A stretch of DNA of 64,000 nt from an uncultured Desulfobacterales bacterium (GCA_937915545.1 CALGIJ010000021.1:36815-100814); one strand, 5' to 3'; shown: positions 4,848 to 38,343, counted from the first letter of the stretch. Numbers and translations: made by a program. Notes: generated by a model not told the origin, from the sequence alone.

Positions 4848-7800
4848 GTGACTCGCCCGGCTGCCATGGACAAGGCGAAAAGCGCACCTTCGCCCCGACT
4901 CGGCCACCTGTCGGTGGCGCTGCTGGCGCTGCTCGCTCTCGACCTGCTGGTCGGTGTCTGGCTCTTCCAGGAGCAACTGGGCGGACAGCGGCAGATGGTC
5001 GAGGAGCAGCTGCAGGCAATCGCCACCCTCAAGGCCGAAGAGATCGCCGAGTGGCGCCAGGGGTTGATTGACCAGGCCGCCCTGATCGGCGAGAGTCCCT
5101 TCTTCGCCCAGGGAGTACAGCGCTATCTCGCCACTGCCGGCCTCGACGACGCCCAGGCACTCCTGCAGCGGCTGCGCTCGATGACCGTCCACTACCACTA
5201 CCCCGGAGTGCTGGTCACCGACGTCAGCGGCAAGGTGGTGGTCTCCTATGGCCAGCTGGCCAACCTCGACAACAGCGGCACCCTGGCCACCCTGGTTTCC
5301 CGCGCCTTCACCGAGCGGGGCCCGGTGCTCGGCGACCTCTTCGCGGCCGGCGGCGAGGTGTTCATCGCCGTGTCGACGCCGCTGTTCGAAAACGGCCAGC
5401 CCGGGGGCCGCCTCCTCGGTGCGGCGGTGCTGGTCACCAACCCGCGGCGCTACCTCTTCCCCCTGCTGGAGAGCTGGCCGACGAAGAGCGACAGCGCCGA
5501 GTCGCTGCTGGTGCGTGTCGAGGGCGACAAAGTCCTCTACCTCAGCAACCTGCGCCACGCTGTTCATTTCCCGCTGACTCTCAGCCTGCCATTGCGCCGC
5601 GACACCACCCCGGAGGTCGGGGACGTCGCCAGGGATGGCGGCATCATCGTCGGCCCCGACTACCGCGGCAGCAAGGTCATCGCCTATGTCATACCCGTTG
5701 CCGGCTCACCCTGGTTCCTCGTTTCGAAGATGGATGACGACGAGGCCTTCGCCACCTGGCGCCGGCAGTCGGCCTTGCTCATCGTCGCCTTCGGCGGCAT
5801 CGCCGCCCTGCTGATAACCTTCGGTCTCGTCGCGAGGCAGCGCAACCGCCGTCTCCATTCCGACCAACTGCTGGCCGCGGAACAGACCCTGCGCCGCAAC
5901 GCCGAGCGTAGCGCCTTCGTCTTGCGCTCCATCAACGAGGCCATCGTCGTCACCGACGCAGAGGGCCGCATTGAGCTCATCAACCCGGCGGCCGTGGCCC
6001 TGCTCGACAGGGACAGGCGCCATCTCGTCGGCGTCCCCCTGGCAGAGGTCTTCACCCTCGTCGACGAAGAGAGCGGCCGACCGCTGCCCGATCCCGTGGC
6101 CACCGTCCTCGCCGGCGGCGACGGCACTGTTGCCCACGGCTCGCCGACCCTCGTCCTCGCCGATGAGGGCCGTGTCCCGGTGACCATCGACACCGCACCC
6201 CTGCATGACGGCCAGGGCAGGGTCAACGGGGCGGCGGTGGTCATCCACGACCAGAGCCGGGCGCGCTTTCTCGCCCGCCTCACCGAAAAACGCATCAAAA
6301 TCGGCGAGTTTGCGGCCACCATCCCTCTCGACCAACTGCTCGTCAAGATCCTCGACGAAACCTGCGAACTGGTCGGCAGCCCCATCGGCTTCTACCACTT
6401 CGTCCTCCCCGACCAGAAGACCCTCGCCCTGCAGGAGTGGTCAACGAGGACACGGCAGGAGTTCTGCCACGCCGAAGGCCAGAGCCTTCAATACGACATC
6501 GCCCTGGCCGGAGTCTGGGCGGATTGCATCGCCAGCCGTAAGCCGGTGATCCACAACGACTATGCCTCCCTCCCCCATGCCAAGGGGCTGCCCCCCGGCC
6601 ATGCCCCGGTGGTGCGGGAACTGGTGGTACCGGTACTGCACCAGGACAGGGTGGTGGCAGTCGTCGGTGTCGGCAACAAGGCCAGCGACTATGACGACCG
6701 CGATGTCGAGGCGGTCTCCTACCTCGCCGAGGTCATCTACCATCTCGTCGACGCCAAGAAGACCGAGGAGGCCCTGCGCCGCTCCCTGCAGACTTCCGAC
6801 GACCTGGTGCGGGCCATGCCAGCCGGCCTGTTCATCTTCCAGTACCGCGAACCGAGCCACCTCACCCTGCTCTCCGGCAACCCCGAGGCGGAGCGGCTCA
6901 CCGGCAGAACGATGGCCGACCTCGTCGGCCTCGACTTCGCGTCCATCTGGCCCACCGCCGACAGCAGCCTCGCCGCCAGGGTACTCGAAGTGGTGCGCAG
7001 CGGCAGGACCTTCGAGACCGAGGACCTCCATTACGCCGGCCAACACCTCGCCGCTGCCTTCCGCCTGCGCCTCTTCCGCCTCCCCGATTCCCGTCTCGGG
7101 ATGGCCTTCGAGAGCATCGGCGACCTCAAGCGGGCCGAGGCGGAAAAGGAGAAGATCCACTCGCAGCTGCAACAGGCGCAGAAGATGGAGTCGGTGGGCC
7201 GCCTCGCCGGCGGGGTGGCCCACGACTTCAACAACATGCTCAGCGTCATCATCGGCAACACCGAGCTTGCCCTCGAATACGCCAAGAAGGATTCGGCCAT
7301 GCAGCGCGAGCTGCTGGAGATCAAGGCTGCCGCCCTGCGCTCGGCCGAGCTGACGCGGCAGCTGCTCGCCTTCGCCCGCAAGCAGGCGGTGGCGCCGCGG
7401 GTCATCGACCTCAACGCCACCATCGAGGGCATGTTGAAGATGCTGCGCCGGCTCATCGGTGAGGATATTACCCTCGAGTGGCTGCCCCAGGCGGGGCTGC
7501 CGTCGATCTTCATCGACCCCTCACAGGTGGACCAGACCCTCGCCAACCTCTGCGTCAACGCCCGCGACGCCATCGACGGCGTCGGCAGGATCATCATCGA
7601 GACCGCCAGCGTCACGCTGAACGAGGAATACTGTCTGGAAGCCCCCGGCACCAGCCCCGGCGATTACGTCGTCCTCACCGTCAGCGACACCGGCATGGGC
7701 ATGGCGAGGGAGCAGCTGGGACATATCTTCGAGCCCTTCTACACAACCAAGCGGGCCGGCGAGGGCACCGGACTCGGCCTGGCGATGATCTACGGCATCG

Positions 7801-8309
7801 TCAAGCAGAATGGAGGCTATATCAAGGTGTACAGCGAACCCGGCCAGGGGGCCACCTTCCGCATCTACCTGCCGCAATACCTCGGCGACCGGGGCGAGGA
7901 CGAGGAGCGAGGCACAGAGCTCGAGGAGATCCCCGGCGGCCAGGGGCAGCTGATCCTCCTCGTCGAAGACGAGACGGTCATCCTCGAGATGAACAGCCGC
8001 ATCCTGCAGCGCCTCGGCTACCGGGTCATCGCCTCCAGTTCCGCCGCCGAGGCCATCGACCTGGCGCGCCGCCACCACGGCGAGCTGCGCCTCCTGCTCA
8101 CCGACATCATCATGCCGGAAATGAACGGCTACGATCTCGCCACCGCCATACAAAAGGAGGCCCCGGAGTTGCAGGTGCTCTTTATCTCCGGCTATACTGC
8201 CAACGTCATCGCCCGCCAGGGCATCATCCCGGAAGGTGTCAACTTCCTGCAGAAACCCTTCATGAAGCGGGATCTCGCCCTCAAGCTGCACCACATCCTC
8301 AACGGCTGA
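4848..8309 (+). CDS. Hybrid sensor histidine kinase (TM/periplasmic sensor, PAS, GAF, PAS, HisKA, HATPase_c, REC)
   Basis: H-box [23 protein letters not shown]. HATPase_c (DTGMGM...GTGLGLAMIYGIV). Receiver (LILLVEDETV...LLLTDIIMPEMNG...LQKPF). GTG start at 4848; ATG 4866 is an alternative. Confidence 0.9.
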   Translation: MTRPAAMDKAKSAPSPRLGHLSVALLALLALDLLVGVWLFQEQLGGQRQMVEEQLQAIATLKAEEIAEWRQGLIDQAALIGESPFFAQGVQRYLATAGLDDAQALLQRLRSMTVHYHYPGVLVTDVSGKVVVSYGQLANLDNSGTLATLVSRAFTERGPVLGDLFAAGGEVFIAVSTPLFENGQPGGRLLGAAVLVTNPRRYLFPLLESWPTKSDSAESLLVRVEGDKVLYLSNLRHAVHFPLTLSLPLRRDTTPEVGDVARDGGIIVGPDYRGSKVIAYVIPVAGSPWFLVSKMDDDEAFATWRRQSALLIVAFGGIAALLITFGLVARQRNRRLHSDQLLAAEQTLRRNAERSAFVLRSINEAIVVTDAEGRIELINPAAVALLDRDRRHLVGVPLAEVFTLVDEESGRPLPDPVATVLAGGDGTVAHGSPTLVLADEGRVPVTIDTAPLHDGQGRVNGAAVVIHDQSRARFLARLTEKRIKIGEFAATIPLDQLLVKILDETCELVGSPIGFYHFVLPDQKTLALQEWSTRTRQEFCHAEGQSLQYDIALAGVWADCIASRKPVIHNDYASLPHAKGLPPGHAPVVRELVVPVLHQDRVVAVVGVGNKASDYDDRDVEAVSYLAEVIYHLVDAKKTEEALRRSLQTSDDLVRAMPAGLFIFQYREPSHLTLLSGNPEAERLTGRTMADLVGLDFASIWPTADSSLAARVLEVVRSGRTFETEDLHYAGQHLAAAFRLRLFRLPDSRLGMAFESIGDLKRAEAEKEKIHSQLQQAQKMESVGRLAGGVAHDFNNMLSVIIGNTELALEYAKKDSAMQRELLEIKAAALRSAELTRQLLAFARKQAVAPRVIDLNATIEGMLKMLRRLIGEDITLEWLPQAGLPSIFIDPSQVDQTLANLCVNARDAIDGVGRIIIETASVTLNEEYCLEAPGTSPGDYVVLTVSDTGMGMAREQLGHIFEPFYTTKRAGEGTGLGLAMIYGIVKQNGGYIKVYSEPGQGATFRIYLPQYLGDRGEDEERGTELEEIPGGQGQLILLVEDETVILEMNSRILQRLGYRVIASSSAAEAIDLARRHHGELRLLLTDIIMPEMNGYDLATAIQKEAPELQVLFISGYTANVIARQGIIPEGVNFLQKPFMKRDLALKLHHILNG

Positions 8310-10627: not shown

Positions 10628-12589
10628 CTACAGCGAGTATTTACCCAGGGCGGCGCGCATCTCCTCGGCCATGGCCAGCCCCGACTGGGACTCCCCGGCA
10701 ACGCCATGGCCATCGGCCGACAGCTCCTCGATGGCCCGGCTGAGCTTGGCCATACGGTCGGCGATCAGGGTCAGGGAGGCGGCATTGCGGGCAACGTTCT
10801 CCGTGACTTCACGGATGCCCAGCGAGGCCTGACCGACCCCGCCGGAGATCTCGTCGGTGGCCTTCGACTGCTGTTCAACGGCGGCGGCCACCGAGGAGAT
10901 GTTGTCGTTGACCTCGCCGATAACCGTGGCGATGCTGCCGATGCTCGCCACCGCCTGCTCGGTGGTGGTGCGGATGGCATCGATCTTGTGTTTGATATCC
11001 CCGGTGGCCAGCGCCGTTTGCTTGGCCAGTTCCTTGATCTCGTTGGCGACGACGGCAAAGCCCTTGCCGGCCTCGCCGGCGCGGGCGGCTTCGATGGTGG
11101 CGTTCAGGGCAAGCAGATTGGTCTGTTCGGAGATCTCCTCAATGGCCTCGGTGACCCGGCCGATCTCCCCCGCCGCCTGGCCGAGCTGGGAGATCTGCGC
11201 CGAGGCCTCGCCGGAGCGGCTGACCGCTGCCCCGCTGACGCGAAGGGCCCGCTCCATGCTTCCGGCGATCTCGCGGATGGTGGCCGACATCTCCTCGGCG
11301 GCCGCGGCGATGGCGCCGACATTGGCCGCCGTCTCCTCGACGGCGGCGGCCGTAATCTGCAGGTTGTCGTTGACCCTGGCGGTTTCGCCATCGATCTCCT
11401 CGCCATCGCGGTTGGCCGACTCGACCTTGGCGAGCATCTTGTCCGACACCTCGCGCAGGGTCGCCGAACGCTCGCGGAGATTTTGCGAGCGCTCCTTCAT
11501 GCCGGTGAGCATAGTCGAGAGATCCTCGAGAAACTGGTCGATATCATCCCCCAGCTGCCCCATTTCATCCCTGCTAGCGATATTCACTCGTCCTTTGAGG
11601 TCACCAAGCGACGCCTTCTGCAGCACCTCGGTGATGCGGCGGAAGCGCTTGATGAGGTAGTGATTGAAGAACCACGCGCAGATGGCGATGACGATGACGA
11701 TCATCGCCAGGCCAACGCCGACATAGAGCCACAGCAGCCGCTTGAGGCTGGCGACCTGATGTGAATAGTCCATGCGCACCAGCACCAGCCCGGCGGTCTT
11801 GCCGCTGAAATCGGCCAGTGGCCCGGCGAGGAGCAGCAGGTGGCGGTCATCCGTAGAGACGTCGCACAGCCGGCGCGTGCCGTCGGCCAGAACCTGGGCA
11901 AGCAGGGGCCGGCAGGGCTCGGCGATATCGACCCCGCCCGACTGGGCGAGCAAGGCGGGCTTGCCCCCTTTATCGATGGCGATGGCCGCGTTGATGCCAT
12001 AGCGCTCGTGCAGGGGCTGGAGCAGGCGGTCGTTGACGGCGATGCCGAACTCGACGACGCCGATAAACCTGCCATCGGATGACACCGGGGCAACCCCGCG
12101 AATGCCCATGCCGAAGGGGCCGGTGTCGAGGCCGAGGACCGGCTGCTGCGTGCCGCTGGCCTTGACGATGGTCGGCCGCGTCGCCGACAGGTCGTCGCCG
12201 AACTTGGTCGGCTCATGGAGACGCAGGAAGGACGTCGCCGGGGGGAGGTGGAACTGGAACTGGTGGATGTTGAGCCTCGCCTTGCCCACCCCATGGAGGG
12301 GGGCGGTGAGGGCCATCAGCCGCTCCCGCTCCCCGGCGGCGAAAGTCTTCTGCACCTCGGGCAGGGTGGCCACCGTCTCAGCCAGGCCATAGGCCTTCTC
12401 CGCCGAGAGAGATATCAGTTCGATGACGCTCTGGTAGTCCTTGAGAAGCTGCCCCTCGACGCTGGCCATTATCGCCTTCTTTTCCTGGAGATAGGCATTG
12501 CCGACGAGCATGGCGATGGTCGCCGTGAACAGTGTCGAGATGATGAGGATGAGCTTGCCCCGCAGACTGAGGCTCCGAGTCTTCGCCAT
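10628..12589 (-). CDS. Methyl-accepting chemotaxis protein with large Cache-like periplasmic sensor
   Basis: TM, roughly 280-aa periplasmic region, TM, HAMP, then the MA domain with [38 protein letters not shown] 12589 has AAGGA 6 nt upstream; the longer ORF reaches 12652. Confidence 0.9.
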
Positions 12590-12782
12590 ATGGTGTCCTT
12601 GCATGTCGTCGCTGATGGAGTGAGTGTCGGCCGCTGCCGGCAAGACTGACAAAGAAAGGGACCTTAGCTTGGCCTAGAGCCTTTTGCAACCGCGTTTTTT
12701 GTCGCCAGGCATTTTCCACAGCTTTTTCTCTTACAAGGCTATCACGGCGTCACAGGAAAATCGTGCAAGCACCTTTTAACCG

Positions 12783-15700
12783 CTAGGACACGGAAGTGCA
12801 GAGACTCTGTCGAGAGCCGTCAAAGGACTCCGCGGTCACCACCACTTCCGGGGTATCGCCCGAATCCCTCTCCGCCCCACCCGACTGCAGGATCTCCCTG
12901 ATCTTCGCCCCCAGCTCGTCTCTCATGAACGGTTTCTTGATGAAATTCACGCCGGGGTCGAGCACGCCATGGCTGGCGATGATCTCGGCGGTATAGCCGG
13001 ACATGTAGAGACAGCGCAGCCCTGGGCACAGGGAGGTGAGGTTGCCGACGAGATCGCGGCCGTTCATCTCGGGCATGATGACGTCGGTGAGCACCAGGTC
13101 GATGGCCGCGCCATGGGCGCGCGCCAGGCTGATCGCCTCGCCGGGGGTGGGCGCGGCCAGCACCTTGTAGCCCATGCGCTGCAGCATCAGCGTGGCCATG
13201 GTGAGGATCGACGGCTCGTCCTCGACGACGAGAATGGTCTCGCTGCCGCGCAGCGTCGTCTGCGCCGGGGCCATGCCCAGGCCTGAGTCCTCGCCTTCGC
13301 TGTGGCGGGGCAGGTAGATCTCGAAGACGCTGCCCTGGCCGGGCCGGCTGTTGACATAGATGAAGCCGTTGTTCTGCTTGATGACGCCGTACACCGTGGC
13401 CAATCCCAGGCCGGTGCCCTTGCCGACCTCCTTGGTGGTGAAGAAGGGCTCGAAGATATGGGGCAGGGTGTCATCGTCCATGCCGCAGCCGTTGTCGCTC
13501 ACCGCCAGGCGCACATAGTCGCCGGGGAAGAAGCCCTCGTGCCTGGCGCACTGACGGTCGTCGAGGCTGACGTTGCCGGTGGCGATGGTCACCTTGCCGA
13601 CGCCGCTGATGGCATCGCGGGCATTGACGCAGAGGTTGGCGAGGATCTGATCGATCTGCACCGGGTCCATGCGCACCGGCCAGAGGTTCTTGCCCGGCAT
13701 CCACAACAGGCCGATATCCTCGCCGATCAGCCGCCGCAACAGCCGCAGCATGGCCTCGATGGTGCTGTTGAGGTTGAGCATCCGCGGCGAGACCACCTGC
13801 TTGCGGGCGAAGGCGAGCAGTTGCTTGGTGAGGTCGGCGGAACGCCGCGCCGCGGTTTCGATCTCCGTCAGGGCGGTATGCAGCGGGTCCCCGGGAGTGA
13901 GGCGCTCCAGGGACATGCCGGTATAGCCGAGGATGACCCCGAGCATGTTGTTGAAGTCGTGGGCAACGCCCCCGGCCAGCCGCCCCACCGATTCCATCTT
14001 CTGTGCCTGAATGAGCTGCGAGTGGAGCTTCTCGCGCTCCTCCTTGGCTTTCTTATGGGCGGTGATATCCTGGGTAACGCCGAAGAAGTGGCTGGGCAGG
14101 CCGAGGCTGTCGCGGAAAACCATCCCGTAGGAATAGTGCCAGCGCACCTCGCCGCCGGGAGGGACGACGCGGTAGACGCTGGAGAACGGCGCCTTCTCCT
14201 CCAGGGCCCGGCACAGGGTGTGCAGGCCATGGTCCTGGTCTTCGGGGTGGACGAGGAGGCGCACAGCCTCGAGGCTCTCGCCACAACGCTCCCGATCGAC
14301 GCCGAACAGCGTCTCGTGCCCGGGCGACCACTCCATGCGCCCGCTCTGGCAGTCATAGCGCCAGTACCCCATCCTCGCCACTCTCAGGGCCATGGTGAGG
14401 CGCATCTCGCTCTCGCGCAGGGCCTCCTCGGCCTGGCGCCGCGTGGTGATGTCCTGGTTGACGCCGAAGATGCATAGCGGCCGCCCCCGCCGCGAGCGGA
14501 TATGCATCGCCAGGTAGCCGCCGGCGCCATCGCCGAAGATGACACGATGTTCGAGGTAGGCATAATGTTCCTCATCATCGCTGCAGCGTGCCCGCTCCAG
14601 CTCGAGCAGCACCCGGCCGCGGTCGTCGGGGTGGAGAAAGCGCCGCGCGTAGTCGGCGACGGTCATCTCATAGCCGCCGGCTGCCACGGCGGTGACGCGC
14701 AGCATGGTGTAGATCTCGTCGGAGAAGGTGAAGACATTGACCGACCGGTCCAGTTCCCAGTGACCGAGCTTGGCGATGCGCAGGGCTTCCGAGAGGCGCT
14801 CCTCGCTCTGCCGCAGCCGCTCCTCGGAGCGCTTGCGCCCGCTGATGTCGTCATAGAGGGTATAGACCTGGCCGGGCAGTTTCTCCCCTCTGGCAAAGAG
14901 CGGCACTGACGAAATCGACAGCCAGATCGGCCGCCCCGTTTCCGGGGAGGGCAGTCCGCGCAGCATCGGCCCGACGCTCTCCCGGGTGCGCAGGGCGATC
15001 ATCGCCGGGTGTTCGTCGTCCTCGAGCACCCGGCCGTTTTCGGTGATCAGACCGTGCTGCAGCTCCTTGAGGCTGCGCCCGCGGCACTCCTCCACCGACA
15101 GGCCGTGCAGCGCCGCCGCCGCCGGGTTGATGCAGAGGATCTCCCCCGTCGCCGAGGAGTAGATCACCGCCGAGGGCAAGGTCTCGAAGAGGGTACGGAA
15201 CTTCTCTTCGCTGTGGCGCATGGCGGCCAGGGCCTTCTCGCTGACCAGAAGCGCCCTGGCAAGAATCAGCCGGCTCTGGCCCTGCAGGGCCATGCGGGCG
15301 ACGAGGGTGGAGAAGAAGCCCATGATGCGGTCGATCTTGTCACGCGTCCAGCGCGGCACCCGGTCGAAGGCGCTCAAATAGGCCTCCTCGTCGAAGCCGT
15401 GGCACCTCGCCTGGCGGCGGAACCGTTCACGGTCGGGCTCTTCGTCCTCATAGAAGAACTGCCCGAAGACGAAGTTGCCGAGGTGCTCGCCGCCGATGCG
15501 GATCGGGAAGACGACATCGAACATGCCATTGCCGCAAGGCACGACTCGCCGCTCTCCCGGCGCCACCAGGGCGGTGTCGCTCTCCAGACAGTGACACCGC
15601 GTCCCCGGGTGGACACGGTGGAAATAGGCACATATATCCTGCCAGCCGCAGGAGACGAGGACCTCGCCGCCTCCGTCGACAATCGTCGCGGCCACCCCGG

Positions 15701-15917
15701 TCACGCCATGGCACTCGTCCATCAACTCCTGCAGTCCTTCCCTGTCGATGATCTCGGCCAGTGTCACCCCACCCGCGCCCCTGCCCGGGCCAGGGTCACC
15801 GCGAAGACAGCCGGCGATGGCGGCCCGCCCGCCGCAAGGCGCCATGATGCCCTCGCCGAGCCACCCTCTCTCATCCTTGCCGCTGGCGCAGCCCATCGCC
15901 TCCCCCACGAAGTTCAT
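12783..15917 (-). CDS. Cytoplasmic hybrid histidine kinase with PocR-like N-terminal sensor, 3 PAS, HisKA, HATPase_c, REC
   Basis: PocR-like Cys/His-rich block ([27 protein letters not shown]...[13 protein letters not shown]). H-box [24 protein letters not shown]. Receiver (ILVVEDEPS...[13 protein letters not shown]...IKKPF). ATG 15917 forms an ATGA overlap with the upstream stop. Confidence 0.9.
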
Positions 15918-16165
15918 GACATGTCCTCCCCATCTTCGGACAGTTCCGGATACAGTCTTTTCATACACGGCGGACAGAGGCCGTGGCTGAACCAGCCCCC
16001 ATCGTGGTCGCCGCCAGCGCTCTGCGGCCAGGCCCAGTTGCCCTCCGGGTCGCGGATCCTGCCACAGCTGACACAGGCACAGGCGATGGCGGCGGGCGGC
16101 GGCATGCCGGCCGCAGACCCCGAGGGAGCCACCCCGAGGACCACCGACATGCAGAGGGCGTTCAT
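15914..16165 (-). CDS. 83-aa Cys/His-rich protein (putative zinc-ribbon module, function unknown)
   Basis: MNALCMSVV...CACVSCGRIRDPEGNWAW...FSHGLCPPCMKRLYPEL. There are ATGA overlaps at both ends, with CheY upstream and the kinase downstream. The same motif ends the protein at 34044-35222. Confidence 0.6.
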   Translation of the reverse strand: MNALCMSVVLGVAPSGSAAGMPPPAAIACACVSCGRIRDPEGNWAWPQSAGGDHDGGWFSHGLCPPCMKRLYPELSEDGEDMS

Positions 16166-16557
16166 GCCACCAGCTGCAACTTGCGCAGCTCCTCCAACAC
16201 CTGGGTCTTGCGGATGGGCTTGCTGAGATAGCCGTCGCAGAGGCGCTTCACCCCCTCGACGACATGACGCGGGAGGTCCATGGCAGTGGTGACGACGATC
16301 TTCGCCGCCGGCCACGGGCGTTCGCCCTGACCGGCCTCCCGCTCGCGGATGCGGCGCAGGGCATCCTGGCCGGTCCTGCGCGGCAGCATGACATCGAGGC
16401 AGATGAGGTCGTAGGGTTCCTCGTCGGCCATGGCGTCGCAGACCGCTTCCACTGCCTCCCGCCCGTTGACGACGATATGGCTTGGCCCGAAGCTCTTCAA
16501 AAACCCCTGCAGTTGTAAGCAACTGGTGAAATCATCTTCGACGATCAGTGTTTTCAT
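16162..16557 (-). CDS. CheY-like single-domain response regulator
   Basis: MKTLIVEDDF...DLICLDVMLPRRTG...KIVVTTA...YLSKPI. The ATG at 16557 overlaps the upstream kinase stop (ATGA). Confidence 0.9.
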   Translation of the reverse strand: MKTLIVEDDFTSCLQLQGFLKSFGPSHIVVNGREAVEAVCDAMADEEPYDLICLDVMLPRRTGQDALRRIREREAGQGERPWPAAKIVVTTAMDLPRHVVEGVKRLCDGYLSKPIRKTQVLEELRKLQLVA

Positions 16558-19127
16558 GGCGTGTCTCCTTGAATGGCCGTTTTCGACTCGGGAGTCGGCG
16601 GGGCAAGCTCCCCCGCCGCCATCTCCATGTTCTCCTCCGGCAGCCAGCGGTTGAGCACCTCGGTGAGGCTGCACAGGGAGAAGGGCTTAGCGAGAAAATC
16701 GTTCATGCCGGCGGCGAGGCACATCTCCCGGTCACCGGGCGCTGCGCTGCCGGTCATGGCGATAATGGGAACGGCGGATACCAGCGGCAACGGGCAGGCG
16801 CGGATCTCCCGGGTGGCGGCGATGCCGTCCATGCCGGGCATCTGCAGGTCCATGAGGATGAGGTCATAGGGCGGTGAGGCCAGCAAGGTGTCGACTGCCT
16901 CCCGACCATCGACGACACCGTCGGCAACGAGGCCCAGTGCCTCGAGGAGCCCCTCGGCGACCTTGCGATTGGTGGCGTTGTCGTCGGCCACCAGGATGCG
17001 GCAGAGCGCGCCTCCGGGGTTGGCCAGGAAGCGTCGCCTTTTGCAACCGTTAGCCCTCTGTCCGTAGGGGCGTTGCGCTTCCCCGGCCTGGATCGGCCGC
17101 TCGGTTCCGGCCGATTCATCCTCGCTGCCCACCTGACAGGCGGCACCGAAACGGGTGATGAACGAGAACTCGGCGCCCTCGCCGGGGACACTGCGCGCGC
17201 ATATGGTGCCGCCCATCAGCTCCACCAGCTCCCTGGCGACAATCAGGCCCAGCCCGGTGCCGCCGCAGGCCCGCCGCAGCGCCAGATCACCGCTGGTGAC
17301 CGGAGCCAGGAGCGTGTCGAGCACGTCCGCGGCGATGCCGACACCACTGTCGGCGACGGTAAAGCGCAGCGGCACCTCTCCGCCCGCCTCTTTCTCATCG
17401 GCCAATGCCACGCAGAGCCTAACCGTCCCGCGAGCGGTAAACTTGATCGCATTCTGCAACAGACGCACCAGAATCTGGCGCAGCCGACGGGGGTCGCCAC
17501 GCAGGCTGGATGGCAGCTCCGGGGCGATGGAGACCTGCAGCTCGAGCCTTTTGTCGCCAGCCTTGACAGCCATGGCGGCGACGACCTCGTCGAGAAGATG
17601 GCTCAGGCTGAAGTCGACCGTGTCGAGCACGATGGTTTCTTTTTCCATCCTCGCCACCTCGTCGATGTCGTCGAGCACGCCGAGCATCGATTGAGCGCAA
17701 CGGCAGAGCAGCTCGGCGAGACGCGCCCTGCACTCGCCGCGGCTGTCGTCGCGCAGCTGCGCGGTCAGGCCGGCCATGGCGTTGAGCGGCGTGCGCAGCT
17801 CGTTGCTGACCGTGGCGAGGAAGTCGCTCTTGCCCCTGGTGGCCGCCTGCGCCACCTCGGCCATGGCTCGCGCCCGGCCAAGTTCCTCCTGCAGCCTGCG
17901 GCACACCTCGACCAGTTTCGCTTCCGCCCTGCTGCGCCGGGAATTGTCGACGATACACTCGAGGACCTTCTCGCGCTGGCCGAGTTGGAAAGGCAGCACC
18001 GTCCTCGTGACGGGCAGGAGGCTGCCGTCGGCGCGCAGCATGAGGACTTCATCCCCCCCCCCTTCGCTGCCGCCGGCATCGACCCGGGCGTGATGCGGCG
18101 CAACCGCGCGCAAGAGGGCCTGGCAGCGCTGGCCGAGGAGATGGCTCGGCGGGGCGCCGAAGAGTTCGGCGACATGGCTGGAGACCCGTTCGATGCGCTG
18201 CGTCTCCGCATCGACGATGACCAGCCCCAGCGGCAGATGGTCGAAGAGGGCCTGCTGCAAGGCCATCGCCTCCTTGAACGCCTCGCGCCGCCGCCACTCC
18301 TCGCTGATTTCGCGCACCGTGACCGCCGCCCCCAGCACCATTCCGGAGCCGTCGCGAATGGGGGCGCAGCGCCCTTCCACCCGCCGCAGCGCACCGTCCC
18401 TGGCCACCAGCGCCACCGCCTCGCCGCTGACCACCACCTCGCCGTCGCGCAAGGCCCTGTTCACCGCCAGATCCGCACTCTGCCGGGTGCGCGCGTCGAC
18501 CAGCGGCAGGACATCGTGCAGGGGCCGCCCCACCGCTTCCCAGCCGCTCCAGCCGGTCAGGCGCTCGGCGATGTGGCTCATCGTCACCACCCGGCCCTGG
18601 CGGTCGCAGGCGATGACCGCCTCGTCGATGGAACGAAGCGTGGCGAAGAGGTACTGCTCGCTGTCGAAGAGGGAGGCGGAGCGCACCCGCAGTAAGCCCT
18701 CCACCGTCTGGCGGCGCCGCCCCACGGCGGAGACGATCACCGCCAGCACCACCGACAGCAGCAATCCGCAGAGCCCGAGGGATAGCGTCGTGCGCAGCGT
18801 GGCGGCGACGGCGGCCTGGCGCACCGCCTCGATGCCAGCAGAGCGGGTCGCCTCGGCAATGGCCCACCGAGAAGACGTGGTGTGCGGCAGAGGTGCCTCG
18901 CGGAAAAGGTCGCCGCTGCCGGCAGGAACTGCGGTACCGTATACTGTATCCGTCAAGGCTGGCGGGGAGTCTCCCCGGCCGACAGTGCCAAAGGTCAGCC
19001 CCCAGACCGAAAGGAAGGTCAGGAGAAAGACGAGGAGGAACAGGTGGCGAGAGATCATGGCAGCGACCAGCGAAGGCCAGCGGCAAAGCCATCGGCAGCA
19101 TGTCTGAGCAAGGTTTTGCGGTATCAT
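16554..19127 (-). CDS. Membrane hybrid histidine kinase (TM, 2 PAS, HisKA, HATPase_c, REC)
   Basis: SNELRTPLNAM H-box. GTGLGLIVARELVELMGG. Receiver (RILVADDNATN...DLILMDLQMPGMDG...FLAKPF). ATG 19127 has a GAGGAG SD; the longer ORF begins with TTG at 19166. Confidence 0.85.
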   Translation of the reverse strand: MIPQNLAQTCCRWLCRWPSLVAAMISRHLFLLVFLLTFLSVWGLTFGTVGRGDSPPALTDTVYGTAVPAGSGDLFREAPLPHTTSSRWAIAEATRSAGIEAVRQAAVAATLRTTLSLGLCGLLLSVVLAVIVSAVGRRRQTVEGLLRVRSASLFDSEQYLFATLRSIDEAVIACDRQGRVVTMSHIAERLTGWSGWEAVGRPLHDVLPLVDARTRQSADLAVNRALRDGEVVVSGEAVALVARDGALRRVEGRCAPIRDGSGMVLGAAVTVREISEEWRRREAFKEAMALQQALFDHLPLGLVIVDAETQRIERVSSHVAELFGAPPSHLLGQRCQALLRAVAPHHARVDAGGSEGGGDEVLMLRADGSLLPVTRTVLPFQLGQREKVLECIVDNSRRSRAEAKLVEVCRRLQEELGRARAMAEVAQAATRGKSDFLATVSNELRTPLNAMAGLTAQLRDDSRGECRARLAELLCRCAQSMLGVLDDIDEVARMEKETIVLDTVDFSLSHLLDEVVAAMAVKAGDKRLELQVSIAPELPSSLRGDPRRLRQILVRLLQNAIKFTARGTVRLCVALADEKEAGGEVPLRFTVADSGVGIAADVLDTLLAPVTSGDLALRRACGGTGLGLIVARELVELMGGTICARSVPGEGAEFSFITRFGAACQVGSEDESAGTERPIQAGEAQRPYGQRANGCKRRRFLANPGGALCRILVADDNATNRKVAEGLLEALGLVADGVVDGREAVDTLLASPPYDLILMDLQMPGMDGIAATREIRACPLPLVSAVPIIAMTGSAAPGDREMCLAAGMNDFLAKPFSLCSLTEVLNRWLPEENMEMAAGELAPPTPESKTAIQGDTP

Positions 19128-19361
19128 GGCGACGCAGTCTCCTCTCGTTGATGGTTGTTGTATCAATCCCTTGCGCTCGGCCCCGTTTCATGCCCGGCAA
19201 GGCCATCCGGCGTCACGCGCCCAGGGGCCGGCGTAGAAATCCTCGCAACTCGTTTCTTCCCGGCACCCCGCTCAGCACCTCGAGGCAAGGTACGAGCGTC
19301 AACTTTTCTGGGGTACCGTCGACCACAGATCCCCGGGGTTTGCCGCCTCCAGCGAGAAGGT

Positions 19362-23234: not shown

Positions 23235-24956
23235 TTACAGGGTGAATTTCCCCATCAACTGCTCAAGCTGCCCGGCCAGTCCGAGCAGTTTTTCGACATT
23301 GTCGCGGACCTGGTCGCTGCCGCGGCCGACCTCCGCCGCCTGACGGGTGATGACGGAGATATCGTCGCAGATGTGTTGCGACATGAGGCTGTTCTGCGCC
23401 ACGTTTTCATTGACGTCCCCCAGCCCCATCGATGCCTGGGCGATATTGCCGGCGATCTCGCTGGTGGCCGCCGACTGCTGTTCGACGGCGGAGGCAATGC
23501 CGCCGATGACCTCGTTGATCTCGGCGATGACCGCGCTCACCTTGACGATGTCCTCGACGGTCGAATCGGTGATCGTCTGCATCTCGCTGATCTGCTCCTT
23601 GATATCGACGGTCGCCGTCGCGGTCTGCTTGGCCAGCTCCTTGATCTCGTTGGCGACCACGGCAAAACCCTTGCCGGCGCCACCGGCCCGTGCCGCCTCG
23701 ATGGTGGCGTTCAGGGCGAGCAGGTTGGTCTGGTCGGAGATCTCGGTGATGGTCTCGGTGACCATGCCGATCCTTTTCGCCGAGTCCCCGAGGATGTTCA
23801 TCTTCTGCGAAGCCTGCTGCGACTGCTGCACCGCGCTCTCGGCAATGGTCCGCGCCCGCTCGGCACTCTGCCCGATCTCCCGCACCGTCGACGACATCTG
23901 CTCGGCGGCGGTGGCCACCAGGGTGACATTGCTCGATGACTGTTCCATGGCCGCCGACACCGACTGCGAGCTGGCGTTCATCTCCTCCGCCGCCGCCGCC
24001 ACGCCGGCCGATTTTTCCGCCGTGTCCCGCGCCGACTGCGACAGCTGCTGGCTGACCACGGCCATCTCCCCGGACGAGCGGGTCAAGGTCTCCACCCCTT
24101 CGGCGACCTTGGCGAACATGACCTTGAGGTTGCCGACCATGGTGTCCAGAGAGTGGAGCAGCTGCCCGGTCTCGTCAGCGCTGTCGACAACGACGGAAAC
24201 GGTGAAATCGCCCTGGCCCATGACCTCGGCCGCCCCGACGGCGCGACGCAGGGGAAGGGTGATGGTGCGCACGGCGACAAAGGCGATGCTCCCCCCCCAG
24301 AGCAGCCCGCAGATGCCCAAAACGGCGCTGATCTTGCCGAGGATCGACGAAGATTTGCTCGCCGTCTGCAGTTCCTCGGCTACCGACAGGGCGCTCTGTT
24401 CAATGAGCTTATCAAGCATTGCAGTGGCCTGCACCTGAATCTCCCGCGAGGTGTAGAGAATATGCCTGGCCGCCTCGGCCTTGAGCTGCGCCTGGGCCTT
24501 TTTCCCATCGGTCCCGCTGCCTTCGAGGCGATCGATCTGGTGCCACAGATCGAGCGCGGTGTTGTTGGTGTCGCGCCAGCGCTGCCAGGTGGGGACGAAC
24601 TTCTCCCACAGGACTTCCGTCTCACCCTGCTGCGGCAGCTTCTCATAGACCTGCCAGGCAGCCTCGTATTTTTCGCGGGCGCTGTTGATCGCCTGGTAGA
24701 ACTGCTGGCGCATGGTGCTGTCGACCCCGGGAAGCAGCAGGCCGAACATTGCCGATTTGATTTCATTGGCGTTGTCCCTGATGACCATGAGGCTCTCGAC
24801 GCTGGGATAGCGCACCGTCCCGATCTCAGCCATATGGCGATCGGCGCTGGTGATGCCAAAATATCCGATGGCGCCGAGGACAAGGGATGTCCACGCCATC
24901 AACCCGAAGGCAATATACATCTTGGTGGCCAGGCTGCTGTTCGACAGAATCTTCAT
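23235..24956 (-). CDS. Methyl-accepting chemotaxis protein (4HB-type sensor, HAMP, MA)
   Basis: Two TM segments, HAMP, and signalling hairpin [35 protein letters not shown]. Confidence 0.9.
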
Positions 24957-33142: not shown

Positions 33143-33214
33143 TATGTCTCCCCCAAATCTCGTTCTCCGGAGAAAATTCCGGAGGTGGTTCTGTTCGCAA
33201 CCCAAGGTATCCTC

Positions 33215-34043: not shown

Positions 34044-35222
34044 TCACTCATCCTCCACCCCTGGATAGAACCTGGCCAGGCAGTCGGGGCAGAGGCCATG
34101 GCTGAACTCGGCCTCGGTATGGTTGCGCACATAAACCTCGACCTGGTTCCAGAAGCCCTTATCGTCGCGGATCTTCTTGCAGTGCATGCAGATGGGGACG
34201 ATGCCGCGCAGGGTCTTGACCTGCTCCATGGCCCGCCGCAGCTGGTCGTTGGCCTCCCGCAGCCTGGTCTCGGCCTCCTTGCGCTCGGTGATGTCGATGA
34301 TGGCGCTATAGGAGCCACGAACACTGCCATCCGTGGCAAAGAGCGGCGAGGCCGAGACGATGGCCCATACACTCTTCCCTTCCCTGGTACGAAAGCGCCG
34401 TTCGAAACGCTCGTCGCGCCCCTGCTGGCGCTGCTCCTGGCGACGGTGGAAATCGGCCACGTCTTCGGGGAAGAAAAAGGATTCAAAGGGCCTGCCAAGC
34501 ACCTCTTCGACCCGATAGCCGAGCATGGCGGCAAAAGAGCGGTTGGCAAAGGCGATACGATGTTCCCCGTCGAGCTGCACGATGCCCTCGCCCACCGCGG
34601 TGACGATGCGGCGGAATTTCTCCTCGCTCTCGCGCAGGGCGTCGTCGACGCGCTTGCGCTCGATGGCGATGGCCGCCATATCGGCCACCGCGGCAAGTAC
34701 CTGGAGATGGTTCTCGTCATACCGCAACGGATCACTGTAACTCTGCACGGCCATCACCCCGACCGCCCCACGCGGTGTCTTCAAGGGGGCGCCGAGCCAG
34801 ATCTCAGAGGGAGTGCAGGGCGGCACGGTCAGGCCGCAGCTCTCGCGGAAAAGGCTGATCTCCGCCCGGCGCAGCAGCATCGGCCGCTGTTCGCGGATCA
34901 CCCAGGCGCTGAGCGAGGCGGTGTTGCTGACATTGAGGGCGATCGGGTAGCAGCTGTCGACCTTGTCGACAAAATAGGGAAAGGTCAGGCTGTCGTCCCC
35001 GGGGTGGTAGAGGGCGATAAAGAAGTTTTCGGTATCGATGACCGGCGCCAGCGCCCGGTGGATGGTGGCGAACAACTCCTGCAGGGAGGCGGTGGTACTG
35101 ACCGCCTCGGCTATGGTTTGAAACACGCTGACGATGGCCTGCCAGCGCCGGTTGCGGCCGGCCTCCTCGGCAAGGCTCGCCACCTGCCGCTGCAGCTTGC
35201 GCATGGCTCTCGTTTCCCTCAT
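34044..35222 (-). CDS. GAF + PAS sensor protein ending in a Cys/His zinc-ribbon-like output motif
   Basis: N-terminal GAF-like region, then a PAS domain (FRRIVTAVGEGIVQLDGEHRIAFANRSFAAMLGY...), then the C-terminal ICMHCKKIRDDKGFWNQVEVYVRNHTEAEFSHGLCPDCLARFYP. The ATG overlaps the upstream kinase stop (ATGA). Confidence 0.85.
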   Translation of the reverse strand: MRETRAMRKLQRQVASLAEEAGRNRRWQAIVSVFQTIAEAVSTTASLQELFATIHRALAPVIDTENFFIALYHPGDDSLTFPYFVDKVDSCYPIALNVSNTASLSAWVIREQRPMLLRRAEISLFRESCGLTVPPCTPSEIWLGAPLKTPRGAVGVMAVQSYSDPLRYDENHLQVLAAVADMAAIAIERKRVDDALRESEEKFRRIVTAVGEGIVQLDGEHRIAFANRSFAAMLGYRVEEVLGRPFESFFFPEDVADFHRRQEQRQQGRDERFERRFRTREGKSVWAIVSASPLFATDGSVRGSYSAIIDITERKEAETRLREANDQLRRAMEQVKTLRGIVPICMHCKKIRDDKGFWNQVEVYVRNHTEAEFSHGLCPDCLARFYPGVEDE

Positions 35223-37492
35223 CGCGCACCTCCCCTTCCCTGCAAAGCCCGCCGTACGGCGCGGCCAAGGGATTCGAGGGTAAATGGTTTCTGGAGAAAA
35301 CAGACATCCTGGTCGATGACGCCATGCCGGGCGATGACATCGGCGGTATAGCCGGAGACGAAGAGGCTGCGTAGACCGGGATCAAGGCCCTTCAGCCGCC
35401 GCTCCAGTTCCCGGCCGTTCATCTCCGGCATGACCACGTCGGTGATGAGCAGGTCGAACCTCTCCCGCCCGCTGCCTACCAGGGCGATGGCCTCCCGGGG
35501 CGACTGGGTGGAGGTCACCTGGTAGCCCGTGGTGGTAAGGATCTCCCGGGCGAGGGCGAGCAGGCCGGCGTCGTCCTCCACCAGCAGGATCCTTTCGCCC
35601 TGCCCCTGCAGGGCTTCGCCCCCGGCACCGGCCGCCGCGCCATCCCCCTCGCCGCCACCGCGCGGGAAATAGAGCCTGAAGGTAGTCCCCCGGCCCGGCG
35701 CGCTGTGCACATCGATGAAGCCGCCATTCTGCCGCATGACCCCATAGACCGTGGCCAGGCCCATGCCGGTGCCCTTGCCGGGCTCCTTGGTGGTGAAGAA
35801 CGGCTCGTAGATCTGCGCGATGGTGGCCTCATCCATGCCGCAGCCGTTGTCGCTGACCGTCAGCGCCACATATTGTCCCGGCTGGCTCTCGGCGATATGG
35901 CGGCAGGCGGAGGCGTCGACGTCGACGTTGCAGGTTTCGAGGACGATGGCGCCCGAGGCGCCGATGGCGTCGCGGGCGTTGACGCAGAGGTTGATGAGCA
36001 ACTGGTCGAGCTGGCTGGGGTCGATCCACACCGACCACCCTCCCGCCCCACCTCGCCACTCGATGGCGATATGCTCGCCGATGAGGCGGCGCAGCATGGG
36101 CAGCATATCCTCCACCGCCTTGTCGAGATCGATGGTCTGCGGGGCGATGTTCTGCTTGCGGGCGAAAGCGAGGAGCTGGCCGACCAGGCTCGCCGAGCGC
36201 AGGGTGGTCTCCTCGACGACGCGCAGACGGTTCGCCATGGGGTCGTGGGGAGGCAACTTCATCAGGGTGAGCTGCACCATGCCGAGGATGACCGTCAGCA
36301 TATTGTTGAAGTCGTGGGCGATGCCCCCGGCGAGACGGCCCACCGACTCCATTTTCTGTGCCTGCAGAAGCATCTCGCGCAGCCGCTCCTTTTCCGTCTC
36401 GGCACTCTTGAGGTCGGAGACGTCGCGGATCATCTCGATGGCCCCGATGCGTTCCCCGGCACGATTGTAGATCGGCGCCGCCACTCCCCAGAGGTAAGCG
36501 CCCCGCCCCTGGTGGAGCGTCGGCACGAAAGATTCGGCGTGGATCGCCTGATGCTGCCGGTGCACGGAGAGATAGGCCGCCTCGCAGCGGGCGTCGGGTT
36601 GATCGAGCAGGTCGACGAGGATCGGCCGCCGTTCACCGAAAAAGGGCTCGGCATAGATATAGTCGCCCTTGCCGATGACCGCCTCTCGACCGACGCCGGT
36701 GAGCTCCTCCGCCGCCCTGTTCCAGATGACCACCCGCCGCCCGGTGTCGACGATGAAGGTGGCGTCGGGAAGGAAGTCGATGATATCGACGAGGAACTGC
36801 CTCTCGGCGGCGAGCTTTTGCTCGGTGCGCCGCTGCTCGTCGCTCTTGGCGGCGATATGCCCAACCATGTCGTTGAAGTGAGAGATGAGCCGATTGACAT
36901 CGGCATAGCGGGTCAGCGGGATGACCGTGGTGTAGTGCCCGGCAGCCACCGTCTCCATGGTGCGAAAGAACTCGTAGAAGGGCCGCTGCACGCGGCGGCC
37001 GACGAGACGGCTGACAATCACGTTGGCGACCAGCACCGCCAGGCAGACCGCCAGGGCGACGAGAAAACCGAGCCGTTGACTGGCCCTGACCGCCTCATGG
37101 CTGAAGGTGATGGTGAAGGCGCCGAGTTCCATGCCCTTCGCTTCTATAGTGCGCGAGATCGGCCTGATGCGCGACGAGGCAGCGCCCAGAGATTTCTCGA
37201 GGAGGATGCCGCCGGCGGTGGAGCTGAGCGAGATGCCGACGATCTTCTCCGAGGCGAGAAAGGTCTCGGCGATGCGCACCGCCGTCTCGTGGTCGACATT
37301 GTAGAGCGGGTATTCGAGGAGCGAGGCCAGGTCGTCGGCGGTGGCCGCCGCCTCCTGGCGCAGCTCGTTCAGCAGCGACTCGGAGATGAGCACGGTGGCG
37401 GCCACCGCCACCAACGCCATGATCGCCAGAGAGACGGCGACGATCAGCGCCTGCACCTCGCCGAGCAGGGTCTTGGGCGTGCCGAAGGCCAT
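35219..37492 (-). CDS. Hybrid histidine kinase (TM, HAMP, PAS, HisKA, HATPase_c, REC)
   Basis: H-box [36 protein letters not shown]. Receiver (ILLVEDDAG...LLITDVVMPEMNG...LQKPF). ATG 37492 lies 2 nt after the SBP stop; the ORF track's 37498 is a TTG. Confidence 0.9.
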   Translation of the reverse strand: MAFGTPKTLLGEVQALIVAVSLAIMALVAVAATVLISESLLNELRQEAAATADDLASLLEYPLYNVDHETAVRIAETFLASEKIVGISLSSTAGGILLEKSLGAASSRIRPISRTIEAKGMELGAFTITFSHEAVRASQRLGFLVALAVCLAVLVANVIVSRLVGRRVQRPFYEFFRTMETVAAGHYTTVIPLTRYADVNRLISHFNDMVGHIAAKSDEQRRTEQKLAAERQFLVDIIDFLPDATFIVDTGRRVVIWNRAAEELTGVGREAVIGKGDYIYAEPFFGERRPILVDLLDQPDARCEAAYLSVHRQHQAIHAESFVPTLHQGRGAYLWGVAAPIYNRAGERIGAIEMIRDVSDLKSAETEKERLREMLLQAQKMESVGRLAGGIAHDFNNMLTVILGMVQLTLMKLPPHDPMANRLRVVEETTLRSASLVGQLLAFARKQNIAPQTIDLDKAVEDMLPMLRRLIGEHIAIEWRGGAGGWSVWIDPSQLDQLLINLCVNARDAIGASGAIVLETCNVDVDASACRHIAESQPGQYVALTVSDNGCGMDEATIAQIYEPFFTTKEPGKGTGMGLATVYGVMRQNGGFIDVHSAPGRGTTFRLYFPRGGGEGDGAAAGAGGEALQGQGERILLVEDDAGLLALAREILTTTGYQVTSTQSPREAIALVGSGRERFDLLITDVVMPEMNGRELERRLKGLDPGLRSLFVSGYTADVIARHGVIDQDVCFLQKPFTLESLGRAVRRALQGRGGAR

Positions 37493-37494
37493 GG

Positions 37495-38343
37495 TCAAGG
37501 CTCCCCGGTGTACCTGGCGACAATGCCGCGGACGACGCCCTCACCCACCAGGCGATCCAGGGCCTCGGCCACGCGGTCGGCGAATTCGAGGTGCGGCGAC
37601 TTGCGCGAGAAGGCCAGAAAGAGGTCTGTTTGCCGGTTAGGCTGGTATGCGGTTGGCTCCACCGCCCCGCCCAGCCCCAGCCGCGCGATATCGTAGGAGA
37701 GGTTCGGCTCGGTGCCGATGATCAGGTCGAGACGCTTTAAAGCCAGCGCCTGGAGCAGCTGGGTCTCGGTGGAAAGGCCTTTCTTGTCGAGGCTTGTATC
37801 CGAATCGAAGGGCTCGAAATAGGCGGAATGCAGGGAATAGCCGATGGTCTTGCCACGAAGATGCTCGTAGATGGCGATCTCTCCGCCCCTGCCCCCAGTG
37901 GTGAAAAAACGCGGCCGCACGGCGCAATAGCTGGTGCCGACATAGCGCATGAAGATTTCGCGCTCCGCGGTGCGGGCGACGCCGCTGAGCAGATCGACCT
38001 GGCCGCTGCGCATCATCTCCAGGGCGCGGGCCCAGGGGTGGCGCTCGATGAGGATCTTCACCCCGAGGCGCTCTTGCAGAGCGGCGACCACATCGATATC
38101 GATGCCGCGAAAGCCGCTTTCGCTCTGCGGGTTGTTGATGCGAAACGGCGGCCACTCCTCGGTGGCCATGCGCAAGGCCGGCGCTGACTCGGCGGGAACA
38201 GCTCCAACGCAGTACGGCACCGCCGCCGCGGCCAGCGCGGCAAGGAGCCAAACCACCGTGGCGAGCCTTCGCTCTCCGTTCTTCCCGGCGCCCATACCCC
38301 CTCCCCTTGGCCGTACCAGCCGCGGCGAGCCGCTTCTCTCCAA
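37495..38343 (-). CDS. Periplasmic solute-binding protein, family 3 (amino-acid-ABC-type SBP), probably a co-sensor for the downstream kinase
   Basis: Signal-like LATVVWLLAALAAAAVP, then an SBP_bac_3 pattern (WPPF...GIDIDVV...RLDLIIG). Tightly coupled to the kinase gene. The start could be ATG 38295. Confidence 0.8.
   Translation of the reverse strand: MERSGSPRLVRPRGGGMGAGKNGERRLATVVWLLAALAAAAVPYCVGAVPAESAPALRMATEEWPPFRINNPQSESGFRGIDIDVVAALQERLGVKILIERHPWARALEMMRSGQVDLLSGVARTAEREIFMRYVGTSYCAVRPRFFTTGGRGGEIAIYEHLRGKTIGYSLHSAYFEPFDSDTSLDKKGLSTETQLLQALALKRLDLIIGTEPNLSYDIARLGLGGAVEPTAYQPNRQTDLFLAFSRKSPHLEFADRVAEALDRLVGEGVVRGIVARYTGEP

Follow-up and report, generated by a model that had tools for sequence, protein, structure and literature searches.

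The closest described counterparts of the protein domain considered here are HalOD2 and TackOD1, cysteine-rich output domains, predicted to be zinc fingers, in response regulators of archaea (Galperin et al. 2018, PMC5847659). In HalOD2, which is restricted to a few halobacteria, two CXXC pairs are set 20-25 residues apart (CXXC-x20-25-CXXC), and TackOD1 contains 11 Cys (PMC5847659). We analyzed a stretch of 64,000 nucleotides from an uncultured Desulfobacterales bacterium (GCA_937915545.1, CALGIJ010000021.1:36815-100814), hereafter the window, in which the gene for a mini-protein of 83 amino acids (aa) lies on the minus strand at 15914..16165. Its translation, gene calls, the ratio of non-synonymous to synonymous substitution rates (dN/dS) and the G+C content of third codon positions (GC3) indicate a gene, and its product is a divergent form of an unnamed Cys4/His domain of about 50 residues; we call this domain family ZnR. 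Like HalOD2 and TackOD1 (PMC5847659), ZnR is small, built on CXXC pairs, found C-terminal to REC domains and predicted to bind metal; unlike them, the ZnR sequences seen here are bacterial, and the domain also follows PAS, GAF, HAMP and MASE6. The two archaeal domains, with which no sequence relationship was tested for or seen, are its nearest concept in the literature.

An 83-residue member of the ZnR family

Judged from sequence, 15914..16165 is a real gene under selection. Its minus-strand translation is exactly the one given in a first-pass annotation of the window, and in at least 12 public contigs independent gene callers predicted this 83-aa gene with matching 4-nt overlaps to its neighbours. 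The ATGA couplings that had been reported at both ends of the open reading frame (ORF) are present: the stop codon of a 131-aa single-domain receiver (REC131) and the ATG of the mini-protein are joined in GCATGA (16162-16165), and the stop codon of the mini-protein and the ATG of a PocR-containing hybrid kinase are joined in TCATGA (15914-15917). Comparison with three diverged copies gave a dN/dS of 0.24-0.26 in frame versus 1.1-1.7 in the other two frames, with 10-11 non-synonymous and 13-14 synonymous changes (binomial p ~5e-4 to 1e-3 against neutrality). Constraint is equal over the first 30 codons and the core (dN/dS 0.25-0.28), and purifying selection on these N-terminal residues suggests that translation probably starts at M1. 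GC3 is 0.80, compared with 0.62 and 0.60 at the first and second codon positions, a pattern also found in the neighbouring genes. The frame contrast and the GC3 value agree with the earlier argument that this is not an ORF shadowing a GC-rich gene. Public assemblies contain the exact protein and seven variants that are 87-93% identical to it, all of 83 aa; the closest genome is a metagenome-assembled genome (MAG) of Desulforhopalus sp. Replacements among these eight variants are confined to residues 6-33, the loop at 47-55 and positions 59 and 83, and the motif residues are all invariant.

The ZnR signature is C-x2-C-x29-C-x2-C with an invariant His that precedes the third Cys by three residues. 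Its consensus reads L-x-G-x-x-P-I-C-x-x-C-K-K-I-R-D-D-x-G-x-W-x-Q-V-E-x-Y-x3-H-x-E-A-x-F-S-H-G-x-C-P-x-C-x4-Y-P, and in the canonical alignment C24, C27 and H54 are invariant, with C57 and C60 conserved in at least 90% of sequences. The mini-protein has C31, C34, H61, C64 and C67 at the corresponding places and carries all of the signature residues (I-R-D, G-x-W, F-S-H-G, C-P-x-C and Y-P). Its predicted metal-binding core, CVSC-x29-CPPC with IRD, G-x-W and FSHG (residues 31-67; 15965..16075, minus strand), is delimited by regular expression, profile, spacing and an AlphaFold 2 (AF2) model. Where the first-pass annotation had described a gap of 13-16 aa, the distance between the CxxC pairs is in fact a fixed 29 residues, both in the mini-protein and in 262 of 265 family domains. 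Its expectation of Cys/His conservation was borne out by these positions, which vary little or not at all in the canonical alignment and not at all among the eight mini-protein variants. Canonical ZnR proteins, for example a REC-coiled-coil-ZnR protein (L026:5411-6019) and a GAF-PAS protein of the window, share with the mini-protein both the Cys spacing and the IRD, G-x-W, FSHG-x-CP-x-C and YP motifs.

This GAF-PAS protein (34044..35222, minus strand) has a canonical ZnR at its C-terminus (core 34080-34190), in a tail that Pfam leaves unmodelled, matching only GAF and PAS. The motif had been said to recur there, and it does: 19 of 48 residues (~40%) are identical to the mini-protein without a gap (BLASTP, pairwise E=4e-13). 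A six-frame regular-expression scan of the window found these two copies only. With a profile of 101 canonical domains, from which both window copies were excluded, the mini-protein scored 42.2 bits (E=5e-6 in a space of 1.84 billion proteins) and the GAF-PAS protein 143.6 bits; the next-best unrelated segment of the window reached 5 bits. By profile and motif, the mini-protein is a true but divergent member of the ZnR family, a free-standing outlier.

Its divergence lies in defined places. The canonical domain follows a coiled-coil linker ending L-x-G-x-x-P-I-C. Where this linker would be, the mini-protein has an Ala/Gly/Pro-rich N-terminus of 30 residues (16076..16165, minus strand) that is predicted to be disordered and has no similarity to LxxALxxVKTLxG; it lacks the L-x-G, and A-C-A-C stands instead of P-I-C. 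The canonical W-x-Q-V-E-x-Y-x3-H helix is replaced by a Gly-rich stretch, AWPQSAGGDHDGG, the most variable among the variants. The protein as a whole has a net charge of -5 and is the product of a separate gene, with no fusion to the C-terminus of a sensor or receiver module. Its AF2 model is a beta-hairpin with short helices. The predicted local distance difference test (pLDDT) score of this model is 71.7 for the whole protein; averaged by block, it is 91-92 at residues 31-40 and 61-70, 66-81 in the intervening loop and ~50 in the N-terminus. The canonical tail (pLDDT 88.8) is modelled as a linker helix, a beta-hairpin knuckle, a further helix and a CPxC at a helix start.

The family to which it belongs is large. 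A ZnR profile built from 34 sequences and run against 1.84 billion proteins retrieved 24,565 clusters at 50% identity with E<=1e-3, and 20,192 with E<=1e-10. When the mini-protein was the query of a word-indexed search, its own cluster was all that was returned; the 70-residue GAF-PAS tail returned 114 short proteins of up to 77% identity. The family is thus visible via the canonical tail and the profile, not via the mini-protein. The conserved homologues looked for on the basis of the first-pass annotation therefore exist at two levels, as eight syntenic near-orthologues and as the wider family with its more than 24,000 clusters. Identity is 55-75% across phyla and in many paralogous contexts, and the mean net charge over 265 ZnR domains is -0.7. 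ZnR was seen in MAGs or contigs assigned to Desulfobacterota, Bacteroidota, Acidobacteriota, Lentisphaerae, Fermentibacteria, Marinimicrobia and Delongbacteria. Proteins with two ZnR domains also occur, as REC-coiled-coil-ZnR-ZnR (P0143), as REC-ZnR-REC-ZnR (P0125) and as duplicated membrane-sensor-ZnR units (P0123, P0127); either gene fusion or faulty joining of gene calls could account for them.

The domain had been said to lack a characterised function or a name, and comparison with Pfam, NCBIfam, PADLOC and the PDB, the last by sequence and by fold, agrees (InterPro and CDD lay outside this comparison). The mini-protein has no match in Pfam or NCBIfam at E<=10, none of 106 family members scored above threshold in Pfam, and ZnR has no match in NCBIfam or PADLOC. 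A sequence profile search of the PDB gave a best E of 0.07, to unrelated proteins, and Foldseek found nothing in the PDB at E<1 for the models of the mini-protein and the canonical tail. No description of ZnR was found in the literature, including searches for the literal motif strings SHGICP and CKKIRD, subscription journals being outside their scope. Sub-threshold Pfam matches among the 106 members were to DUF3039 (PF11238; 43), zf-C4pol (18) and Zn_ribbon_HMPTM (11). The match to DUF3039 covers just 11 residues (PICxxCKKIRD) and scores 13-15 bits against a cut-off of 22.7, so we attribute these likenesses to generic knuckle similarity rather than homology and reject an identity with DUF3039.

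Other small metal-binding modules resemble ZnR in part. The C-terminal Zn(Cys)4 site of Fur, PerR and Zur likewise holds one metal between two CxxC pairs; these proteins are the top, non-significant, fold matches of the mini-protein model (Foldseek E>1, template modelling score 0.2-0.3), and PerR is also a weak sequence match in the PDB profile search. They differ in context, the site lying in the dimerisation domain of a DNA-binding repressor. The CxxCG and CPxC knuckles of rubredoxin (PF00301) look alike, and CVSCGRIRDPEG of the mini-protein resembles CxxCGYxYDPxxG, which we take to be the rubredoxin pattern. However, rubredoxin has a different spacing, ZnR has an added invariant His, and rubredoxin was absent from the Pfam matches even at E<=10 and from the Foldseek matches. 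Two further candidates were rejected. The ZAS anti-sigma domain has H-x3-C-x2-C and a helical fold and is encoded next to an extracytoplasmic function (ECF) sigma factor gene; the mini-protein has H-x2-C-x2-C, no Pfam match to zf-HC2, and immediate flanking genes that encode REC131 and two hybrid kinases rather than an ECF sigma factor. Membership of HPt (PF01627), a four-helix bundle with a His of the HxxKG type, fails on the lack of a Pfam match for the mini-protein and on its AF2 fold, which is not a four-helix bundle.

ZnR at the end of sensor and receiver proteins

To define the domains that co-occur with ZnR, 124 high-scoring proteins were scanned against Pfam. PAS was present in about 60, MASE6 in 16, GAF in 11, REC in 10 and HAMP in 5, with PocR, dCache, CHASE5, PilJ and Peripla_BP once each and a few single matches to unrelated families, such as one Acyl-CoA dehydrogenase. 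None of the 124 had a Pfam match to HisKA, HATPase, GGDEF, EAL or HTH. Fusions to HAMP and to Reg_prop/Y_Y_Y with a transmembrane (TM) segment are also present in genomes, and many ZnR proteins are membrane-anchored (MASE6, HAMP, Reg_prop-Y_Y_Y-TM). The word 'portable', used of the module in the first-pass annotation, is well suited to a domain fused to PAS, GAF, REC, HAMP, MASE6, PocR, Cache and Reg_prop/Y_Y_Y. ZnR ends at most 53 residues from the C-terminus in 141 of 148 proteins. It is a C-terminal module of sensor and receiver proteins in which no other output was found and, because these proteins otherwise carry only sensor and receiver modules, we infer by elimination that it is an output domain.

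An independent sample of 80 metagenomic ZnR loci, biased towards the canonical motif, contained 70 complete ORFs of 104-984 aa (mode ~205-230 aa). REC was encoded in the same ORF in 20 of the 80 copies and a kinase core in none. A kinase or REC lay within 3 kb at 26 of the 50 loci that had at least 3 kb of flanking sequence, a count that rests on home-made kinase and REC hidden Markov models (HMMs) without a matched background. The fusions and this proximity support the link to two-component signalling that had been suggested. The second locus of the window matches a picture in which ZnR is often wired to two-component systems. There the GAF-PAS-ZnR gene is start/stop-coupled to a PAS-HisKA-HATPase-REC hybrid kinase (35219..37498, minus strand; ORF coordinates and Pfam), as had been reported, and an SBP_bac_3 gene (37495-38343) precedes the kinase with another 4-nt overlap, so that all three genes are coupled.

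The usual list of bacterial signalling outputs comprises DNA binding, kinase activity, cyclic-nucleotide turnover, chemotaxis and phosphatase activity. This 50-residue Cys4/His domain, for which neither Pfam nor NCBIfam has a model, instead closes sensor and receiver proteins by the tens of thousands, and these are annotated by their input domains alone, as 'PAS domain S-box protein' or 'response regulator'. The binding target of ZnR, once found, would assign an output to a large slice of the signalling proteins of sulfate reducers, Bacteroidota, Acidobacteriota and other lineages. Present mislabelling is illustrated by two ZnR-only fragments of 57-67 aa (P0056, P0068) that carry the JGI name 'sigma-B regulation protein RsbU (phosphoserine phosphatase)', probably through annotation transfer from multidomain sensor proteins. 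What the analysis adds to the first-pass annotation is that the family is very large and unmodelled, that the mini-protein is its atypical, rare stand-alone form, and that the idea of a split regulator, considered below, fails.

Proposed action of the mini-protein and its alternatives

The mini-protein is encoded third in a four-gene operon on the minus strand. The first gene (16554..19130) encodes a PAS-HisKA-HATPase-REC hybrid kinase of ~858 aa by Pfam, which gene calls in related contigs give as 857-858 aa with a 4-nt overlap to REC131. REC131 (16162..16557) matches only Response_reg in Pfam. The fourth gene (12783..15917), identified by Pfam and sequence, encodes a PocR-PAS-PAS-HisKA-HATPase-REC hybrid kinase of 1044 aa whose ATG overlaps the mini-protein stop codon. 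Its Shine-Dalgarno sequence, GGAGG (15925..15929; upstream sequence GATGGGGAGGACATGTC, then ATG), is embedded in the final codons of the mini-protein (EDGEDMS). The mini-protein itself has a weak Shine-Dalgarno sequence (GGTGG), as would fit translational coupling. Across the eight variants the gene order is constant, with kinase (857-858 aa), REC (131 aa), mini-protein (83 aa) and PocR kinase (1044 aa) joined by 4-nt overlaps. In one related metagenomic contig (L015:648-3004), where a DDE_Tnp_1 insertion sequence separates the first kinase from the REC gene, the REC has a reduced length of 112 aa, and the mini-protein ORF and the PocR kinase are intact.

Architecture is what points to an effector or adaptor role for the mini-protein, as the first-pass annotation had suggested. 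We propose, with a probability of roughly one half for the whole package, that it is a zinc-binding, protein-binding ZnR output or adaptor that acts in trans for REC131 and the two hybrid kinases. On the motif and the AF2 fold, the four Cys would bind one Zn in a zinc-ribbon or treble-clef-like arrangement, and the invariant His may be a functional residue or an alternative ligand. In canonical proteins the sensor or receiver is joined by a coiled-coil 'signalling helix' directly to the first putative zinc knuckle, and signal-driven movement of the dimeric helix may reposition the two ZnR fingers. ZnR would then act by binding one conserved protein partner rather than DNA; the near-neutral to acidic charge, the cross-phylum identity of 55-75% and the membrane anchoring of many members all suggest a protein target. 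The mini-protein, probably made stoichiometrically with REC131 through the ATGA coupling, would act as the detachable output or adaptor of REC131 in the phosphorelay of the two flanking kinases. A small, soluble-looking protein of 83 aa in a defined four-gene phosphorelay operon is a convenient experimental handle. More tentatively, and with appreciable doubt, ZnR may be a major unrecognised output class that relays PAS, GAF, REC, HAMP and MASE6 signals to one universal, conserved cellular target. The mini-protein would then demonstrate that this module can also act in trans, detached from but partnered with a single-domain receiver in a phosphorelay, perhaps even with its invariant His as a non-canonical site of phosphotransfer.

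Several observations weigh against this proposal. With neither the coiled-coil linker nor the E-x-Y-x3-H internal helix, both of them conserved, the mini-protein may not do what canonical domains do. Its dN/dS of 0.25 is about twice that of its neighbours (0.09-0.10 for REC131 and 0.13-0.15 for the kinase). In two of three contexts examined, the gene for the REC131 homologue comes last, behind that of a hybrid kinase, and ZnR is not encoded nearby, so the pairing of REC131 with ZnR is not general. Some of the short 'free-standing' matches are contig-end fragments, frameshift products, PAS-remnant ORFs or split-gene assemblies, and none of these was counted as evidence for free-standing ZnR. 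The 26-of-50 count carries the limit given with it above.

The alternative that survives best, itself unlikely, is that the gene is a decaying relic of a fused sensor-ZnR or REC-ZnR gene, still translated but without a function of its own and kept mainly for coupling and for the Shine-Dalgarno sequence of the PocR kinase. The missing linker, the Gly-rich loop in place of the internal helix, the relaxed selection relative to the neighbours, the rarity of free-standing copies and the position of the GGAGG within the last codons are all as expected of a relic, and orphan remnants do exist elsewhere, such as one in a Dongshaea plasmid that carries an IS21 insertion. However, a dN/dS of 0.25 is a significant departure from neutrality, constraint extends to the N-terminal 30 codons, the mini-protein keeps the x29 spacing exactly along with all five of the Cys and His residues, and every replacement falls outside the motif residues, changes in the core being synonymous.

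Next, and improbable, is a redox or metal sensor, in which the Cys4/His cluster would be a thiol-zinc or rubredoxin-like iron switch and hence an input rather than an output. The likeness of the CxxCG and CPxC knuckles to those of rubredoxin, the weak top neighbours in fold and sequence, which are Zn(Cys)4 structural sites in PerR, Fur and Zur, and a host of the anaerobe-type Desulfobacterota are compatible with such a switch. None of the matches is significant, though (Foldseek E>1, no Pfam match to rubredoxin), and the domain sits at the C-terminus, behind a signalling helix, in proteins otherwise without an output.

Many small Cys4 fingers bind nucleic acids, and ZnR could in principle be the DNA- or RNA-binding output of one-component regulators of transcription or translation. 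We think this distinctly improbable. It would fit that general habit and the conserved KKIR patch, but the mean net charge of the family is -0.7 and that of the mini-protein -5, many members are anchored in the membrane, and 55-75% identity across phyla, in many paralogous contexts, is easier to reconcile with a single common target than with a variety of DNA sites. On the side of a nucleic-acid target there is also a precedent in the archaeal response regulators, DNA or RNA binding having been proposed for the CXXC-x20-25-CXXC output HalOD2 (Galperin and co-workers, PMC5847659).

Less credible again is phosphotransfer, with the invariant H61 of FSHG taking phosphate from the RECs of the hybrid kinases as a non-canonical substitute for HPt. 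The operon does combine two hybrid kinases with a REC, a Pfam scan of 13 window proteins found no Hpt domain, fusions to Hpt occur in some homologues of REC131, and the His is invariant in the family. The predicted fold, however, is a small zinc finger and not a helical bundle, many members are PAS, GAF or HAMP proteins, kinase cores are absent from the ORFs of all 80 sampled copies, and the His may be just structural or a metal ligand. Finally, a chance ORF in GC-rich DNA, suggested by a genome of 64% GC that is rich in long shadow ORFs (15009-16226, plus strand, covers the same spot) and by the weak GGTGG, is refuted, as far as sequence analysis can go, by the frame contrast in dN/dS, the GC3 of 0.80, the profile E of 5e-6 and the conserved synteny.

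Stand-alone copies, relatives of REC131 and other genes of the window

The proposal of a ZnR output acting in trans can be set beside the few other short genes of the family. Among the complete sampled ORFs about 1 in 70 was comparably short; at ~100 aa, it looks like a PAS remnant. A 100-aa coiled-coil-ZnR gene was found on 10 contigs directly 3' of REC and REC-HisKA-HATPase genes, a 102-aa TM-coiled-coil-ZnR gene lies directly 3' of a gene for a Tll0287-like sensor, and a 77-aa ZnR copy adjoins a 133-aa GAF gene. Stand-alone ZnR thus tends to sit just downstream of a sensor or receiver gene, which fits a two-piece form of the fused architecture. In a Delongbacteria contig, the orthologue of REC131 is directly followed by the gene for a REC-coiled-coil-ZnR response regulator. 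A plasmid collection yielded one ZnR match, the remnant of a GAF-ZnR gene disrupted by IS21 and uninformative on function: in the Dongshaea marina plasmid NZ_CP028898 (L110:1-3117) the GAF gene is split by IS21, and the orphan, unannotated ZnR remnant lies downstream.

We also considered whether REC131 and the mini-protein are the halves of a REC-ZnR regulator split by gene fission. A query joining the two gave no REC-ZnR protein among its best 120 matches; the relatives retrieved were stand-alone RECs of 130-135 aa, a few longer forms and two Hpt-REC fusions. The split-regulator idea is rejected because the relatives of REC131 are stand-alone RECs. The REC131 family itself is a strikingly conserved set of single-domain RECs, with 55-62% identity across several phyla, among them MAGs named Geobacteraceae, Tepidisphaerales, Chloroflexota and Delongbacteria (P0271-P0390). 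Its genes typically overlap the end of a hybrid kinase gene, and occasional members have an N-terminal Hpt fusion (P0304, P0364).

The window as a whole contains six hybrid kinases with a C-terminal REC (4848-8309, 12783-15917, 16554-19130, 27810-30734, 35219-37498 and 55677-61706) and two methyl-accepting chemotaxis proteins (10628-12652 and 23235-24956). The kinase at 55677-61706 (minus strand) is a protein of 2009 aa with the order Ser/Thr protein kinase, AAA_16, GAF, HisKA, HATPase and REC. A 238-aa protein encoded at 33185-33901 on the plus strand ends in VPEPATLLLMGSGLMGIVGLARRKKK, which looks like a sorting signal of the PEP-CTERM type.

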